From: a virus
Taxonomy: Duplodnaviria; Heunggongvirae; Uroviricota; Caudoviricetes
Reading direction: 5' to 3' (one strand)
IMG/VR virus record: IMGVR_UViG_2778261313_000001
Coordinates: 1-6,465 of that record
Length of the DNA stretch: 6,465 bases
This document shows positions 1,310 to 6,465 of the stretch, piece by piece. Every line of letters begins with the position of its first letter. The stretch's first letter is position 1. Under the pieces are notes generated by a model. The model was given only the letters and a program-made list of their open reading frames with translations, was not told where the DNA came from and searched no databases. Both the position numbers and the translations under genes were made by a program.

Positions 1310-1440
1310 ACTAACGAAGAACTTCCTTTAATAGAACCGGAACCACTACCGGAACATGAAGCGGTGGTGATTCCAGAAGTAGAAGAAGTTACGGCGAAAG
1401 CCACAGCAAAACGAGGCCGCAAGGCTAAGAATTAATTTTA

Positions 1441-1468
1441 AGCCCTGCCTTAATGGTGGGGCTTTTTT
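1441..1468 (+). terminator. rho-independent terminator after the major tail protein region
   Basis: Stem AGCCCTGCC (1441-1449) pairs with GGTGGGGCT (1455-1463), 9 bp including 2 G:U pairs, loop TTAAT, followed by TTTTT at 1464-1468. It begins 6 nt after the TAA at 1433-1435. Confidence 0.7.
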
Positions 1469-1990: not shown

Positions 1991-2032
1991 ATTCTAAATA
2001 AACATATCGAATTAACTTAAGAGGAAACAAGA

Positions 2033-2723: not shown

Positions 2724-5153
2724 ATGACAAAACATATAGTAACAATAGAAGGGGATAATAAAGGTCTAAGGAGAAGTACCAATGAAGCCGCCGACCTTCT
2801 CGATAGTTTGTCTGAAAAGGCAAGTAATATTGATTTTGGTGGTGGCTTATCTGGTCTGACTGGATCTCTTCGTGGGATCGCTGGCTCTGCTGGTTTGGCT
2901 GCTGGTGGTATCGGCTTAGTTGCGACCGCAGTGGTTGCAGCCGCTAAAGCTGGCGCGGAATACGTTAAACAATATTCAGAAGTATCTAAGGCGACCGGAC
3001 TCTCGATTGAATCCCTTCAAAGACTGGAAAAGGAATTTTCTGGTACTGGCCTAACAGTTGAAAAATTCGGTGATATCAACAAAGACACCTTAGATAAGAT
3101 GGGTGATGCATGGGCTAACGGTGGTGGTATTGCTGATGACTTAGAATCGGTTGGTCTTAAGTTAGAAAACTATGCTCACTTCATGACAGATCCGCAAGGT
3201 GGTATGAAAGCGGCGATCCAAGTGTTCTATGACATGAAGAAAGCCGGAAAATCAATGGCTGAAATCAAGTTCATGATGGAATCTTTAGCCAGTGATTCAA
3301 GCCATATGACCAGCCAGCTTGAGAAATATAATAGTGCTCAAGAGGCGATGATCGCTATTCAGAATCAATCTGTTAACGTCACCGAAGAAAACGCTAAAAA
3401 ATATGATAAATTTTCTCAGAATATTAATAAGCTGGAAAATAACCTGAAAGGCGCAGCCATGACCATTACTGGTCCTTTGGTTGATAGCTTAAACTGGTTA
3501 TTTGAATGGTTTAATATTGATTGGGAAAAGAGTTCTCTATTCAGGGCATTAGACCGTCTGAATAAAGAAGGTAAGACCGCAACTGGTGGTATTCTTAACA
3601 CCAACCATAAAGACGCTCAAAAGATTATTGACAAGTACAATAAAGAAAAGCGTTGGAATAATCTAGCAGATTGGGAAAAGGCCGCGATCCGTGGTGCTGG
3701 TGTCGATCCTCGTACTGCTGGCTTTGATGTAGAAGGATTTAAGAAACGTTTTGGTGGGTCTTATAAGAAAAATGGTGCTCTGATTGTCGTAGATGCTGGT
3801 GAACATCTGACACGCAAGGCAGATCCTAACACTGATTTAACTCTACCAAATAAACCAGTAAGACCAGAATCATTGGGTAAATCTGGCAACGAGAAGAAAG
3901 CCGAGGAAGAAGCACGCAAGAAAGCGGAAGAGGCAGCTAAAAAGGCTAAGGAAGCCGCAGAAAAAGCACAGAAAGAACGTGAGGATGCAATCAAGCGTCT
4001 GAATGCACTTGATGTTAAATTGCAAGGGCAAGTTGCAGCGTCTATTGCTTCTCAAAACAAGCAGTTAGAAGCCAGCTTGAAAGATTTGGATACTGCTTTA
4101 GATCTGGGCTTAATCTCTCAGCAAGACGCAGCCGCGAAACGCCAATCCTTAATCGATCAGAATACTGAAAACGTATACAAGATGATTTTAGGTGCTGATC
4201 CGGTTGATGCTCTGAATGCTTTAACACAATTGCAACAAATCAGGGATAATGAGTTAGAAAGCCATAAACGGTTACTTGATGGTAAGGCTATCTCCTACGA
4301 AGAATATATGCGTCGTGTGAATGATACCGAACAAAGTTATTCGCAGATTGAAGATTCTTTGCATGGAATGGATGGTTTTAAAACCAATCAGTTGACCAAT
4401 AGCTTAGACTATCAGGACTCAAATAATCCGTTTGCTAAATTTAATGCAATCGATAAAGAGAAATCGGAAGCCGAACAAGATTATAAAACCGATAAACTCA
4501 AGATTGATGGGATCACCGATCCGGCTAAACGGATGGAAGAATTAGAAAAACTCAATGAAAACCATCAAAAACGAATGGCTGCAATTGAGAAGAAATATGC
4601 TGATGCTCGCCAGTCAATAGCCGATGATATGTACGGCGGTTTTGCTGCTGCAATGACTCTCTTCGGGCAGGAAAACACTAAAGCTATGCAGATGGCTTTC
4701 AATGCTCATAAAGCATTCTCTATCGGACAAGCGACGGTGAACATGTGGACGGCTGCTACCGATGCATGGAACGATCCGACCAACGTAACCACAGGTCAAA
4801 AAATCGCTGCTGCTGCATTGGCTGTTTCTCAGAACATGGGGAACATCGCAAACATCAAGTCTACTAACGTTAGCGGTATGGCTCATGATGGTATCGATAA
4901 TATCCCTCGTGAGGGTACATGGTTGCTTGATAAGGGTGAACGAGTAGTTGATCAGCGTACTAACGGTGATTTGAAAGACTTCCTTGCTGCTCAAAAATCA
5001 GGCGGTGGCAACTCTCAGCCGATTGAAGTTAACGCACCTTTGAACATTAACGGCAACGTTAATAGCTCAGACAAGATGGTCATGGATGCTATCAAACGTC
5101 ACGCTAAGTTAGTTGCTCAGGCGGTAGAAGACGCACAACGCCGTAAGATGTAA
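2724..5153 (+). CDS. tail length tape measure protein (809 aa)
   Basis: Shine-Dalgarno AAGGGG at 2712-2717 before ATG 2724. Largest gene, directly after the chaperone pair. Gly-rich hydrophobic segment near the N-terminus (GGGLSGLTGSLRGIAGSAGLAAGGIGLVATAVVAAAKAG), a K/A/E-rich coiled-coil block (KKAEEEARKKAEEAAKKAKEAAEKAQKERE), and a second hydrophobic segment toward the C-terminus. Confidence 0.9.
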   Translation: MTKHIVTIEGDNKGLRRSTNEAADLLDSLSEKASNIDFGGGLSGLTGSLRGIAGSAGLAAGGIGLVATAVVAAAKAGAEYVKQYSEVSKATGLSIESLQRLEKEFSGTGLTVEKFGDINKDTLDKMGDAWANGGGIADDLESVGLKLENYAHFMTDPQGGMKAAIQVFYDMKKAGKSMAEIKFMMESLASDSSHMTSQLEKYNSAQEAMIAIQNQSVNVTEENAKKYDKFSQNINKLENNLKGAAMTITGPLVDSLNWLFEWFNIDWEKSSLFRALDRLNKEGKTATGGILNTNHKDAQKIIDKYNKEKRWNNLADWEKAAIRGAGVDPRTAGFDVEGFKKRFGGSYKKNGALIVVDAGEHLTRKADPNTDLTLPNKPVRPESLGKSGNEKKAEEEARKKAEEAAKKAKEAAEKAQKEREDAIKRLNALDVKLQGQVAASIASQNKQLEASLKDLDTALDLGLISQQDAAAKRQSLIDQNTENVYKMILGADPVDALNALTQLQQIRDNELESHKRLLDGKAISYEEYMRRVNDTEQSYSQIEDSLHGMDGFKTNQLTNSLDYQDSNNPFAKFNAIDKEKSEAEQDYKTDKLKIDGITDPAKRMEELEKLNENHQKRMAAIEKKYADARQSIADDMYGGFAAAMTLFGQENTKAMQMAFNAHKAFSIGQATVNMWTAATDAWNDPTNVTTGQKIAAAALAVSQNMGNIANIKSTNVSGMAHDGIDNIPREGTWLLDKGERVVDQRTNGDLKDFLAAQKSGGGNSQPIEVNAPLNINGNVNSSDKMVMDAIKRHAKLVAQAVEDAQRRKM

Positions 5154-5158
5154 TTAAA

Positions 5159-5203
5159 AGCCCCCATAGTCATAAATAATCATAAAACTATGGGGGCTTT
5201 TCT
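5159..5203 (+). terminator. strong hairpin terminator after the tape measure gene; its 3' arm contains the Shine-Dalgarno of the next gene
   Basis: Perfect 12-bp inverted repeat AGCCCCCATAGT (5159-5170) / ACTATGGGGGCT (5187-5198), 16-nt loop, followed by TTTTCT and then ATG at 5204. Confidence 0.7.
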
Positions 5204-5764
5204 ATGTTCAAATCCAAGAATATTAAAATCACAGATTTTACTCTTAAATCAAAACAGCCTTTCTTCAAGGCGCAATCTATCTCCGGTAAATTTCAACGTC
5301 GCTTTACTGGCATTCATTTTTACGAAGCAGAATTTACCGCGAATTACATGGCTCAGGATATTAACGAAGTAAAAGAATTTGTAGCACGTCACCTTTTTGG
5401 TCGTCCTTTTAGTGTGCCACTGTCTTACTTTTCAAAATATACAGGTGATGTACGCCAGATGGTTACGGCTGCTGCTGGTACTGCTCGCGGTGGGCGTAAG
5501 GTGAGAATCTCCAACTTCACCGGAACACTGAAAGCGGGAACTATCATCCAGTTTGAGAACCACAAGAAAATCTACACGATCACCGAAGATGTGAAATCAG
5601 GTGGCGAAATGAAACTCTTCCCTAATTTGCGTCAGAACGTCCTGGCTGGTGAGGTGATCAAGTATCAGAACGTAGAAGGTGAATTTGTTCTCAAAACGGA
5701 AAATATCGATTGGAAGATCGCCCAGATTGGCAAGATGAAATTCGAATTAGTGGAGAATGTATAA
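5204..5764 (+). CDS. minor tail protein immediately after the tape measure gene (186 aa); candidate distal tail or tail tip assembly protein
   Basis: ATG 5204 with GGGGG (5192-5196) 7 nt upstream; stop TAA 5762-5764. Assignment rests on synteny only. Confidence 0.75.
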   Translation: MFKSKNIKITDFTLKSKQPFFKAQSISGKFQRRFTGIHFYEAEFTANYMAQDINEVKEFVARHLFGRPFSVPLSYFSKYTGDVRQMVTAAAGTARGGRKVRISNFTGTLKAGTIIQFENHKKIYTITEDVKSGGEMKLFPNLRQNVLAGEVIKYQNVEGEFVLKTENIDWKIAQIGKMKFELVENV

Positions 5765-6393
5765 TGGCAACTATTCAGGAATCATTCAGCAAACTATGCA
5801 CTAATCTGGACTTCATCGAGGTATACAACGACCAGACAGGTCAGAATGTGTCTAGATTGACTCTACCGCAGCTTTTCTCTACTGGCTCGATGTTTCACAT
5901 TATCGAAGTGATAACAGCGTCAGGGGACGTTCTACGGCTTACAGATGGGTATTTCGATTTGGACTATAACGGTTTTACATATCTCGCAACGGGTGATTTT
6001 CTTCAAATCTCATCGAATACCGAAGAGAAGGAGATCAACAACAACGGGATCAACGTAACTGTTTCTAACGTTCGCGAAGAATACATTAGCCTGATTCGAA
6101 ACAAGCAATTCGATAAATCTGATGTGAAAATCGAGATGGTTTTCCTTAACCCCAACACGGGCAAGGTTGAAACTACTTACCCTGTTTTCCGTGGGGTAGT
6201 CGATTCCATCGGTATTAACATCGAACATGAAGATGATGAGTGTAAAAACGAATCAGAATTTCAGCTTAATAGTATCTGGGAAGTTCTAGATAAAAACGCT
6301 CGTAGTCATGCCTCCGATGGTATCCACCGATCCTATGTTGGAAACGAGAACGATCTATTCTTCTCTCGTGCCGGGAAGTGGCAAAGCGGGTAA
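5764..6393 (+). CDS. minor tail / tail tip protein, 3'-truncated by IS1; phage-derived part is 5764..6388 and the stop codon comes from the IS1 terminus
   Basis: ATG at 5764-5766 overlaps the upstream stop (TAATG) with GGAG at 5752-5755; the track's 5710 start would overlap the upstream gene by 55 nt and is less likely. The frame runs into the IS1 terminal repeat that begins at 6389; the last codon GGG spans the junction and TAA 6391-6393 is IS1 sequence. Confidence 0.7.
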   Translation: MATIQESFSKLCTNLDFIEVYNDQTGQNVSRLTLPQLFSTGSMFHIIEVITASGDVLRLTDGYFDLDYNGFTYLATGDFLQISSNTEEKEINNNGINVTVSNVREEYISLIRNKQFDKSDVKIEMVFLNPNTGKVETTYPVFRGVVDSIGINIEHEDDECKNESEFQLNSIWEVLDKNARSHASDGIHRSYVGNENDLFFSRAGKWQSG

Positions 6394-6465
6394 TGACTCC
6401 AACTTATTGATAGTGTTTTATGTTCAGATAATGCCCGATGACTTTGTCATGCAGCTCCACCGATT
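6389..6465 (-). mobile_element. IS1 insertion sequence, terminal 77 bp (right inverted repeat end); the element continues beyond the window
   Basis: 6389-6465 reads GGTAATGACTCCAACTTATTGATAGTGTTTTATGTTCAGATAATGCCCGATGACTTTGTCATGCAGCTCCACCGATT, which I recognise as the reverse complement of the IS1 right end, including the 23-bp terminal repeat GGTAATGACTCCAACTTATTGAT. From memory, not a search. Confidence 0.88.
6404..6465 (-). CDS. insB: IS1 transposase InsB, C-terminal ~20 codons (partial)
   Basis: - strand translation ends ...[21 protein letters not shown] with stop TAA at 6406..6404, matching the InsB C-terminus as recalled. Confidence 0.8.
   Translation of the reverse strand, partial: [19 protein letters not shown]

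Follow-up and report, generated by a model that had tools for sequence, protein, structure and literature searches.

Gene content and organization of the locus

The window (the entire stretch of phage DNA analysed here, 6,465 nucleotides in length) carries genes for a tape measure protein, a distal tail protein and a baseplate hub protein (Table 1). The tape measure product matches the PHROG tail length tape measure family phrog_13674 (E = 9e-64), and its open reading frame has ATG 5148-5150 as the last sense codon, followed by TAA 5151-5153. The distal tail protein matches phrog_1302 (E = 1.5e-16), with an additional weak match to the T5 pb9 B-domain. Its start at ATG 5204 is that annotated in RefSeq; five homologues with 43-49% identity align from residue M1, and no in-frame start lies between TAA 5183-5185 and this codon. 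The distal tail and hub genes share a TAATG overlap whose coordinates were given correctly in the preliminary description of this DNA. IS1 sequence starts at 6388, which is 6 nt short of where the hub open reading frame ends as read in the window.

Table 1. Features of the tape measure/distal tail protein junction and related elements in the window
Feature	Position	Strand	Remarks
Tail tube gene terminator (comparator), AAGCCCTGCC-TTAAT-GGTGGGGCTT + TTTTATTGG	1440-1464	+	Canonical terminator
Second intergenic TAAATA box	1995-2000	+	32 nt before tail assembly chaperone gene (ATG 2033)
Tape measure protein gene	2724-5153	+	809 aa; ORF list, RefSeq annotation of identical prophage
Stem 5' arm, AAAAGCCCCCATAGT	5156-5170	+	Sequence and fold; C-run 5161-5165 is the Shine-Dalgarno complement
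Loop, CATAAATAATCATAAA	5171-5186	+	A/U-rich, 16 nt; sequence and fold
TAAATA box	5173-5178	+	Candidate -10-type promoter element; 8-mer CATAAATA at 5171-5178
Predicted transcription start	5184	+	6 nt past box, from T4 geometry (PMC1524935); 3 nt before 3' arm
Stem 3' arm, ACTATGGGGGCTTTT	5187-5201	+	Sequence and fold
Shine-Dalgarno GGGGG of distal tail protein gene	5192-5196	+	7 nt before ATG, in 3' arm
U-rich tail, TTTTCTATGTTCAAA	5198-5212	+	Terminator-like part; runs into coding sequence (AUG UUC)
Distal tail protein gene	5204-5764	+	186 aa
TAATG stop/start overlap, distal tail protein/baseplate hub genes	5762-5766	+	TAA 5762-5764, ATG 5764-5766
Baseplate hub gene	5764-6393	+	PF09931 and phrog_2048

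A hairpin sequesters the Shine-Dalgarno sequence of the distal tail protein gene

Two nucleotides past the tape measure stop codon begins a 46-nt element (5156-5201) with a perfect 12-bp core stem, formed by AGCCCCCATAGT (5159-5170) and its exact reverse complement ACTATGGGGGCT (5187-5198). The stem reaches 15 bp with the addition of three A-U pairs, 5156-5158 with 5199-5201. Both the core stem and the stop lie exactly where the preliminary description had placed them. Reading 3' through the end of the core, the order is GGGGG, then CTTTTCT, then ATG 5204-5206. The minimum-free-energy fold of 5140-5215 is this hairpin (-25.6 kcal/mol), and none of 200 shuffles of the same segment folds as well (mean -10.0, sd 2.5; z = -6.2). 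The 46-nt hairpin alone has a predicted energy of -23.5 kcal/mol and the 12-bp core -20.8 kcal/mol. The hairpin is confirmed as real.

GGGG(G) is the usual Shine-Dalgarno sequence in this prophage, and no other purine-rich stretch occurs between the stem and ATG 5204. The earlier claim that the GGGGG of the 3' arm is the only Shine-Dalgarno sequence for this start holds, as does its sequestration by the hairpin: in folding calculations on a long RNA, the probability that 5192-5196 is unpaired is 0.000. This lock on the distal tail protein gene is not incidental, because none of 150 shuffled upstream sequences hides the Shine-Dalgarno as well and because locks recur elsewhere in the prophage. 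A twin hairpin with a near-identical stem (UACCCUCAUAG-AAUC-UUAUGGGGGUA), lacking a U-rich tail, locks the Shine-Dalgarno of gene x4, starting 8 nt past the upstream stop at the x3-x4 junction. Weaker locks precede the terL, hyp and h1 genes; that before the large terminase gene (terL) has no upstream co-directional gene.

Conservation of the element

The preliminary description had pointed to conservation of the hairpin in related phages as a check, and among close relatives the hairpin is indeed kept. Only 2 of 50 columns are polymorphic in the intergenic element, against 46 of the 100 nearest third-codon positions (Fisher p = 2e-8). Of the 16 loop positions, 15 do not vary across 33 close relatives, the exception being 5171 (C or G). 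The stem substitutions seen are limited to C5164T (7/33 relatives), which leaves a G-U pair and keeps the stem, and a compensatory change of pair C5163-G5194 to U-A in L075/L077, which also turns the Shine-Dalgarno from GGGGG to GGAGG. Judged from these alignments, the 46-nt stem-loop is under selection.

Searches of the window against all Rfam families (E up to 1) and against a plasmid DNA collection returned no match; in a phage DNA collection, matches were confined to the IS2 and IS1 ends and to segments of T-even-like fibre genes. Of two scans of genome contigs, the first found none and the second found one metagenome-assembled contig. Differing palindromes that precede the distal tail protein homologues of L035-L039 (47% identity) were rejected as covariation for a lock at the tape measure junction: the upstream gene there is a divergent lysozyme gene, and the palindrome arises automatically because two symmetric box-plus-Shine-Dalgarno units lie on opposite strands. 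DCP80 was likewise rejected as an independent annotated relative, being a scrambled assembly whose module is found nowhere else. A literature search for DCP80 or for prophages with T4 late promoters found nothing relevant.

Resemblance to an intrinsic terminator

The hairpin also resembles an intrinsic terminator. Its stem base is G+C-rich, and a stem of 12-15 bp (-20.8 to -23.5 kcal/mol) is followed by the tail TTTTCTAT, with 6 U in the first 8 bases. The tail score of -4.68 (-5.1 in T5 variants) is reached by only 0.06% of window positions; that of the canonical terminator after the tail tube gene is -5.47. The 16-nt loop is longer than that of a typical terminator (3-8 nt), and a simple terminator scan missed the hairpin solely because its loop exceeds 8 nt. 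An AGCCC...GGGGCTTTT motif is common to the hairpin and to the terminators that this prophage has downstream of its capsid and tail tube genes. In 8 of 9 co-directional lineages the tape measure gene is followed by a hairpin; three of these, in distant relatives (L050-53, L054 and L060-61), are canonical terminators with a separate Shine-Dalgarno sequence.

Between stop codon and stem lie 2 nt if counted up to the first A-U pair, or 6 nt up to the first G-C pair, short of the free RNA after a stop (> about 10-15 nt) that would allow folding independently of the ribosome. Full termination efficiency is reached at stop-to-stem distances above 27 nt, and with a stop 2-6 nt from the stem, termination is expected to be suppressed if a ribosome closely trails the polymerase (PMC4824070). 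In a lambda tR2 reporter series and in the pyrBI attenuator, which likewise have a hairpin and U-tract a few nucleotides past a stop, termination is almost abolished with coupled translation and returns when translation is uncoupled (PMC4824070). The present element differs from these in that its 3' arm also holds the next gene's Shine-Dalgarno and its loop is 16 nt long. In the ColE7 T1 stem-loop (cei-cel; PMC2896534), an intercistronic terminator similarly lowers transcription of the distal gene with separate translational control at the Shine-Dalgarno, although there CsrA represses a Shine-Dalgarno placed outside the stem, whereas here it lies within the stem.

Because the stop-to-stem gap is only 2-6 nt, termination would be expected mainly on RNA without a closely following ribosome. 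The earlier reading of this hairpin as a terminator thus stands as far as its anatomy goes (stem, U-rich tail and the terminators of relatives), whereas with the stop so near, a trailing ribosome should suppress termination. A weak or leaky terminator is plausible.

Reach of the terminating ribosome

Counted from the P-site codon, the ribosome acts on downstream RNA at a helicase site at about +11 and has its 3' edge (toeprint) at about +16. When UAA occupies the A site, the codon in the P site begins at 5148, giving a reach of 5158-5163. The 5' arm lies wholly past the stop, and this reach covers no more than its first 3-8 nt. In folding calculations the residual helix retains -20.9 to -9.7 kcal/mol with 5192-5196 still paired, and the lock opens only when at least 17 nt are held single-stranded. 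The preliminary description had proposed that a ribosome terminating at the tape measure stop covers the 5' arm and frees the Shine-Dalgarno; the reach calculated here leaves the helix paired. Nor would attenuation and coupling operate at the same time on one transcript, as had also been suggested, since the near stop is expected to suppress termination under a trailing ribosome.

Coupling by RNA unfolding is known for rpmI-rplT, phage f1 genes VII-IX and MS2 coat-lysis (reviewed in PMC12548453). As in these systems, the downstream ribosome-binding site here is occluded by structure, at a spacing of about 50 nt (+52 in rpmI-rplT). Unlike in these systems, where ribosomes traverse the inhibitory strand inside the upstream ORF, the 5' arm here lies outside the path of the upstream ribosome, becoming borderline if the reach is at least 17 nt. 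In the relative L041, the first C-G pair is 9 nt past the stop. The case for coupling of the distal tail protein to tape measure termination is weak.

The layout is superficially that of a translational bypass: the tape measure gene ends AUG-UAA, a hairpin follows, and an AUG preceded by a Shine-Dalgarno-like G-run lies 53 nt on. A T4 gene 60-like bypass was rejected as a working model, as the codon match is trivial (all genes start with AUG) and the take-off codon is outside the stem.

A conserved TAAATA box in the loop

The account of the element in the preliminary description, correct as to the hairpin, overlooked a conserved TAAATA box in its loop. TAAATA is the core of the T4-type late promoter TATAAATA, which occupies -13 to -6 with position -13 variable (CTAAATA in phage Aeh1; PMC1524935). 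The box is invariant in every relative, including L075/L077 and L041, in which the remaining loop has changed. In a wider comparison of 20 lineages, 14 have a box 21-34 nt ahead of the distal tail protein ATG (chance about 0.045 per locus); DCP80, L042/43 and L063-67 have no box at this junction. At junctions with a canonical terminator, the order is terminator, box, Shine-Dalgarno, ATG. A match to an IHF site in the loop was dismissed as casual and poor.

TAAATA precedes most genes of this prophage in a gene-directed manner. Plus-strand intergenic DNA of prophage L002 has 12 copies against 2.6 expected, a count reached in none of 2000 shuffles, while the reverse complement occurs at its expected count. 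All 15 intergenic boxes of L002 point to a downstream gene and lie 10-76 nt before its start, including those in divergent regions. The full TATAAATA is present in only 3 of these 15 boxes, and the core is just 6 bp; DCP80 has the full consensus after terminators in its homologous module. No -35 element above background accompanies the boxes (2.43 vs 2.48 matches), and TAAATA lacks a T at -7; a sigma-70 promoter reading was rejected on these grounds. A search of 12 unannotated prophage proteins with Pfam, PHROGs and NCBIfam detected no sigma factor (gp55/gp33-like or other). Several prophage proteins have no assigned role, and a helper phage could supply a late sigma factor.

RNA starting at the predicted position would have a 20-nt leader without the 5' arm, and for its Shine-Dalgarno the calculated probability of being unpaired is 0.42-0.47, compared with 0.000 in the long RNA. 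The base at the predicted start is A in 10 of 13 lineages. Predicted starts omit the anti-Shine-Dalgarno strand and free the Shine-Dalgarno at the distal tail protein, terL, hyp, h1 and x4 genes.

This arrangement is known from T4 (PMC3014915; McPheeters et al. 1986 as cited there), in which the late promoters of the e (lysozyme), soc, 49 and I-TevI genes are embedded in hairpins masking the ribosome-binding site. There, the helix of the long read-through RNA covers both Shine-Dalgarno and start codon, and the box lies within or beside the DNA for the 5' strand. As in those genes, the long RNA is predicted to fold a helix on the ribosome-binding site, and the box lies between the arms so that a short RNA would lack the 5' strand; at the motif level, both the sequestered site and a box placing the start past the 5' strand are present. 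Unlike T4, the element is carried by a temperate siphovirus-like prophage of roughly 35 kb without recognizable gp55, gp33 or clamp genes, and the box is usually the 6-bp core only. The helix here also has a U-rich tail and directly follows a stop codon, and is terminator-like for that reason.

Proposed function and alternatives

We tentatively favour a model, held at somewhat less than even confidence, in which the hairpin separates two kinds of transcript: read-through RNA, which is stopped or silent, and box-initiated RNA, which is translated. On RNA reading through from the tape measure gene, the hairpin would act as a leaky intrinsic terminator, mainly where no ribosome follows closely, and the only Shine-Dalgarno of the distal tail protein gene would be locked in a helix of -21 to -24 kcal/mol, so that this RNA would be poorly translatable. 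A ribosome terminating at 5151-5153 would fall short of opening the lock. Transcription from the box would start about 6 nt past TAAATA, near 5184; such RNA would lack the 5' arm, could not form the hairpin or terminate at it, and would be translated from a free Shine-Dalgarno. We infer that the box is a promoter, that transcription starts near 5184 and that termination occurs. Several observations count against this model: both the tape measure gene and the distal tail protein gene are late, and the gain from separating them is not obvious; the U-rich tail is superfluous; the box might act at the RNA level, for instance in processing or protein binding; no sigma factor match was found among the prophage proteins (Pfam, PHROGs, NCBIfam); the core is only 6 bp; and some lineages have no box at this junction.

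A plain intercistronic terminator or mRNA 3'-end stabilizer, after which the spacer has shrunk in this lineage so that the G-rich 3' arm happens to provide the Shine-Dalgarno and read-through gives low-level distal tail protein, is a possible but doubtful alternative. It would suit the hairpins that recur after the tape measure gene in this phage group (8/9 co-directional lineages), the AGCCC...GGGGCTTTT motif shared with the capsid and tail tube terminators, the good tail score and the few copies of tail-tip proteins needed. However, a helix of about -21 kcal/mol on the only Shine-Dalgarno would leave an essential gene with almost no initiation, the x4 twin lock has no U-rich tail and locking thus seems selected for itself, conservation of the loop and box is left unexplained, and on translated RNA termination is weakened by a stop this close (2-6 nt) to the stem (PMC4824070). 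Less probable is an attenuator and lock opened by tape measure termination, which would yield distal tail protein only after the tape measure protein is completed, through RNA-unfolding coupling possibly helped by 70S/30S re-initiation across the helix base. In its favour, the stem follows the stop after 2 nt and locks the Shine-Dalgarno; stop and start codons are just 2-3 nt from the two helix ends, unfolding over about 50 nt is known for rpmI-rplT (PMC12548453), full hairpin folding needs 10-15 nt beyond the A site (quoted in PMC4824070), and the helix collapses if at least 17 nt from the first P-site base are held single-stranded. The usual limits of +11 to +16 nevertheless leave -20.9 to -9.7 kcal/mol with the Shine-Dalgarno paired. 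Known cases hold the inhibitory strand within the upstream ORF, coupling in phage f1 genes VII-IX was lost once the stop had been moved to before the hairpin, and structure right after a stop correlates negatively with coupling (PMC12548453). Moreover, in L041 and at x3-x4 the stop is separated from the stem by 6-10 nt, no upstream gene precedes the terL lock, and coupling does not explain the invariant loop and box.

We think it quite unlikely that TAAATA is instead an RNA element, an endonuclease processing or protein-binding site at which cleavage or binding separates or melts the arms and activates translation. The box does sit in a single-stranded A/U-rich loop and, at several junctions, between anti-Shine-Dalgarno and Shine-Dalgarno, and no sigma factor match was found among prophage proteins (Pfam, PHROGs, NCBIfam). 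In the divergent 50-nt regions of a second group of loci (L036, L039 and others), however, the box is symmetric on both strands, 28-34 nt from each start; these regions leave no room for other promoters, and a DNA-level promoter is therefore favoured. At terL and x4 the box adjoins the helix rather than lying in a loop, and loop cleavage would leave a 12-15 bp duplex still holding the Shine-Dalgarno. A broader version of the promoter reading, to which we give little credence, is that the boxes are true T4-type late promoters wiring nearly every gene block, read either with late machinery from a superinfecting T-even-type phage or with an unrecognized sigma factor of the prophage itself, with the hairpins silencing structural genes on other RNA. 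The prophage has no recognizable gp55, gp33 or replication module, and its tail-fibre tip and gp38 adhesin genes are T-even-like. In the DCP80 record, T4-like fragments are joined to a homologous module rich in exact TATAAATA boxes, a makeup that would be consistent with joint propagation of such an element and a T4-like phage.

Implications

What is new here is the invariant TAAATA in the loop of a Shine-Dalgarno-locking hairpin, a candidate promoter. Within 46 nt are combined three signals: a stop-proximal terminator, a Shine-Dalgarno lock and a promoter-like box. For annotation, ribosome reach and loop content should be checked before a hairpin that follows a stop codon is labelled a terminator or a coupling device. 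The genome-wide TAAATA boxes raise the question of which polymerase or sigma factor reads this E. coli prophage. If the loop box is a promoter, the locus would represent the design of T4 gene e outside the T4 family, with a gene translated only from its own promoter.

Prophage context and gene order

The window holds part of an E. coli prophage, delimited by IS2 and IS1 fragments, and its phage portion (6.2 kb) is 100% identical to the intact prophage in strain HCP5S3_I4. E. coli CE0007a is another lysogen whose copy is intact. Related prophage copies are present in 56 of 5426 complete E. coli genomes and are chromosomal in every case. The copy in the window is defective because IS2 interrupts the long tail-fibre gene, of which the last 200 codons are all that is left, and because IS1 reaches into the baseplate hub ORF, starting 6 nt ahead of the ORF end in the window (6393); the intact hub gene in HCP5S3_I4 is 654 nt long. 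The prophage is approximately 35 kb in length, is integrated at hicB and encodes a serine integrase, a Rha-like regulator and a small terminase subunit. Sigma-70-like promoters are present in its early region. No recognisable replication module, repressor, gp55, gp33 or other sigma factor is encoded by the prophage.

Features of the window, in gene order (nt positions)
Feature	Position	Remark
IS2 fragment	1-177	left flank
Tail-fibre tip	180-782	first in gene order; T-even type
Tail tube protein	839-1309	after tail-fibre tip
gp38-like adhesin	1484-1990	after tail tube protein
Two tail-assembly-chaperone ORFs		between gp38-like adhesin and tape measure
Tape measure protein	2724-5153	
Distal tail protein	5204-5764	
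Baseplate hub	from 5764	last in window
IS1 fragment	6388-6465	right flank

In this siphovirus-like prophage, the tail tube gene is sandwiched between genes for a T-even-type long-tail-fibre tip and a gp38-type adhesin. The DNA of tip and adhesin is 74-90% identical to that of the T4-like phages Cognac, ELT4 and Ec_Makalu_002, a sequence likeness that points to an exchange with T-even phages in recent times. Three unannotated prophage proteins of 60, 74 and 201 aa (minus strand of the related whole prophage L002, 3170-4035; related locus L071, 2673-2855) have in common an N-terminal (G)RPxxFxRE motif, repeated in the 201-aa protein, and after it a segment resembling a helix-turn-helix; all three are candidate regulators that would bind DNA.

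The hairpin and the distal tail protein start

The junction between the tape measure and distal tail protein genes has the layout given in the preliminary description: a TAA stop at 5151-5153, a GGGGG Shine-Dalgarno sequence at 5192-5196, CTTTTCT running into ATG 5204, and perfect complementarity of 5159-5170 with 5187-5198. The TAATG said to couple the next gene is likewise correctly placed at 5762-5766. When three additional A-U pairs are counted, the stem is 15 bp in length (5156-5170 with 5187-5201) and encloses a 16-nt loop, CATAAATAATCATAAA. The fold of 5140-5215 has a free energy of -25.6 kcal/mol (z = -6.2; equally stable shuffles 0/200), and the five G's of the Shine-Dalgarno sequence are paired with a probability of 1.000.

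ATG 5204 is the true start of the distal tail protein: it is the RefSeq start, no alternative in-frame start follows TAA 5183-5185 ahead of it, and the alignment with five homologues (43-49% identity) begins at residue 1. In the window, in the related loci L041 and L042/43 and in the GenBank relative DCP80, the last codon of the tape measure gene is AUG (Met), followed by UAA (5148-5153), and the next AUG (5204-5206) is 53 nt on, beyond a hairpin and a G-run. The superficial likeness of this layout to the bypass geometry of T4 gene 60 was judged coincidental.

Conservation of the element

Conservation in related phages was assessed with 33 close relatives (31 IMG/VR contigs, one E. coli genome and the window; 28 haplotypes). 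Substitutions occur in 2 of 50 intergenic columns, compared to 46 polymorphic sites among the 100 nearest third-codon positions (Fisher p = 2e-8). The sole stem substitution, C5164T, retains a G-U pair; the second variable site, 5171, is the first base of the loop, and all other changes are in the lengths of C-, G- and T-runs. Two E. coli copies at a greater distance (L075 and L077, 87% identity) have U-A in place of C5163-G5194, a compensatory double change that also turns the Shine-Dalgarno sequence from GGGGG to GGAGG; pairing between it and the C-run is therefore maintained. By this pattern of substitution, the hairpin element is under selection.

Terminator features

The element has the anatomy of a terminator: an A-tract lies upstream, the base of the stem is rich in G+C, and the tail, rich in U, scores -4.68 (-5.1 where relatives have five T's; -5.47 for the canonical terminator after the tail tube gene), a value equalled at just 0.06% of window positions. 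The hairpin has AGCCC...GGGGCTTTT in common with the canonical terminators after the capsid and tail tube genes. These two are near-identical (AGCCCTGCC-TTAAY-GGTGGGGCTTTTTT; L002 10310-10340 and window 1440-1464) and are preceded by long, similar 3' untranslated regions of 170-190 nt.

Stem and tail fit the proposed terminator, with two caveats: a 16-nt loop is atypical, and the stem begins just 2-6 nt past the stop. In lambda tR2 reporters, stop-proximal terminators are almost fully repressed by the trailing ribosome and become active again only once translation is uncoupled (PMC4824070). Given this behaviour and the short gap, any termination here should, by analogy, mainly affect RNA whose translation does not keep pace with the polymerase.

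A survey of distal tail protein homologues, extending to 27% identity, gave nine lineages with a same-strand upstream tape measure gene. A hairpin directly follows the tape measure stop in 8/9, and structure at this position is therefore a family trait. Three lineages (L050-53, L054, L060-61) have textbook terminators with a separate Shine-Dalgarno sequence 30-40 nt further on, and three (L042/43, DCP80, L055-57/62) have hairpins with no U-tract. Placement of the Shine-Dalgarno sequence within the 3' arm is confined, among those surveyed, to the window lineage and L041 (62% identity); its merging with the hairpin is, in this comparison, lineage-specific.

Shine-Dalgarno locks and the reach of the ribosome

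Occlusion of the Shine-Dalgarno sequence was compared with shuffled upstream sequence at 20 gene starts of L002. It is exceptional at the distal tail protein gene, where the sequestration originally described is upheld, and at x4 (0/150 shuffles occlude as well in each case). It is also exceptional at the gene after the large terminase gene terL (0.007) and the gene after the capsid gene (0.04), marginally so at terL itself (0.09), and unremarkable at the remaining starts. Locking has thus been selected at certain genes and is no general by-product. The junction between x3 and x4 (L002 26740-26781) reads TAA-TCCA-TAAATA-CCCTCATAG-AATC-TTATGGGGG-TATAAC-ATG, with the same stem sequence as the hairpin studied here, a 4-nt loop and the TAAATA 5' of the stem; x4 is a small lysis-region gene just before a D-Ala-D-Ala carboxypeptidase lysis gene.

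With UAA in the A site of a terminating ribosome, the P-site codon begins at 5148. The helicase site of the ribosome lies near +11 and its toeprint or footprint edge near +15 to +16. Full hairpin folding is quoted as needing 10-15 nt beyond the A site (PMC4824070). By these figures, RNA would be kept single-stranded to about 5158-5163. Folding of the remaining RNA leaves a helix of -20.9 kcal/mol at a reach of +11, -16.2 at +13 and -9.7 at +16, with collapse only from +17 or +18 onward. As the residual helix persists up to +16, the freeing of the Shine-Dalgarno sequence by a ribosome terminating on the tape measure gene, as the preliminary description had it, is at best borderline.

Comparison with other locks points the same way. 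The first C-G pair of L041 is 9 nt beyond the stop; the twin before x4 (stem UACCCUCAUAG-AAUC-UUAUGGGGGUA, nearly the same sequence, no U-rich tail) starts 8 nt after the upstream stop; and a similar lock precedes terL in a divergent region with no upstream gene. In known couplings of the unfolding type, the inhibitory strand lies inside the upstream ORF, and in phage f1 coupling is abolished when the stop is placed ahead of the hairpin (PMC12548453).

The TAAATA box

The loop contains TAAATA (5173-5178), which is invariant in every relative, including L075/L077 and L041, where the loop is otherwise altered. On the plus strand of L002, intergenic TAAATA occurs 12 times versus 2.6 expected (0/2000 shuffles reach 12), whereas its reverse complement is at expectation (3 versus 2.4). 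All 15 intergenic L002 boxes are directed at the downstream gene, 10-76 nt before its start; they lie upstream of most gene blocks, on both sides of the divergent terL region and ahead of leftward genes close to the integrase. The phage part of the window has three plus-strand copies (776-781, 1995-2000 and 5173-5178), each in intergenic DNA or at the end of a gene. In 14 of 20 lineages, the distal tail protein ATG has a box 21-34 nt upstream (chance approximately 0.045 per locus), and loci with a canonical terminator have the order terminator, box, Shine-Dalgarno sequence, ATG. No -35 element accompanies the boxes (2.43 matches versus a background of 2.48).

The T4-type late promoter is TATAAATA at -13 to -6, with TAAATA as its conserved core; position -13 differs between relatives of T4, with CTAAATA in phage Aeh1 (PMC1524935). 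This geometry puts the predicted transcription start at 5184, where the base is A, as it is at the predicted start in 10/13 lineages. In RNA from this start, which would have a 20-nt leader lacking the 5' arm, the Shine-Dalgarno sequence is unpaired with a probability of 0.42-0.47, up from 0.000 in the long RNA. The same applies at terL, hyp, h1 and x4, each with a C-rich anti-Shine-Dalgarno strand upstream of its predicted start. The candidate arrangement of box and lock here would be exactly that of T4 genes e, soc, 49 and I-TevI, in which read-through RNA goes untranslated and the translated RNA is initiated at a late promoter within the structure (PMC3014915).

In a second group of loci, belonging to another prophage group (L035-39, L044-48, L070), the genes for the distal tail protein and hub stand alone as a pair beside a divergent lysozyme gene. 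A palindrome of approximately 50 nt between the start codons (approximately 2940-3000 in each locus) comprises two opposite-strand box-plus-Shine-Dalgarno units and leaves no space for other kinds of promoter. The lysozyme gene and a serine integrase flank this two-gene cassette, with a CAP12/Pycsar-type TIR-domain gene nearby; orphaned tail-tip genes at such an accessory position could serve as a decoy or for defence. The junction downstream of the hub gene (L003-L034, approximately +1210 to +1290 from the distal tail protein start) comes in two unrelated alleles with a mosaic boundary; in both, a C-rich stretch (CCCTTCTCCC or GCCCTC) precedes a TAAATA box.

DCP80 (L072-L074, GenBank PQ671644.1, Escherichia phage) consists of scrambled T4-like fragments joined to a 23-kb module homologous to the prophage. 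The T4-like part includes three rIIA copies, gp33, gp45 and other genes, with the exonuclease and primase genes duplicated; its label is that of a complete Gaprivervirus genome, but the sequence has the look of a scrambled assembly. In the siphovirus-like structural module, 11 of 14 plus-strand TAAATA are full TATAAATA, several directly after terminators, and the module is absent from every other phage or E. coli record searched. The joining of a TATAAATA-rich module to T4-like fragments is no more than suggestive.

Function of the hairpin

The observation that opened this analysis is confirmed and its interpretation is partly supported: terminator anatomy and lock are upheld, and opening of the lock by a terminating ribosome is not. 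Our preferred, tentative reading is that the hairpin silences read-through RNA, which would be weakly terminated there and have its Shine-Dalgarno sequence locked, and that the distal tail protein gene would be expressed from RNA beginning at the loop box. That the hairpin is a plain terminator and the Shine-Dalgarno overlap incidental would suit its stem and tail, but is rather unlikely: loop conservation (15 of 16 positions invariant in the 33 relatives) is not explained by a stem-only function, and locking is selected at a subset of genes. Coupling through a terminating ribosome would draw on the same lock and on the nearby stop, and is improbable in view of the helix left within standard reach. 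Least probable is that the box is an RNA element, which its place in a loop would suit.

Either the boxes are read by a prophage protein of unassigned function or by a helper phage, or the box is not a promoter. This kind of device is already known from T4; what appears to be new is a T4-type device placed within a terminator-like hairpin, in a temperate siphovirus-like prophage that has a genome-wide set of boxes without a known reader.
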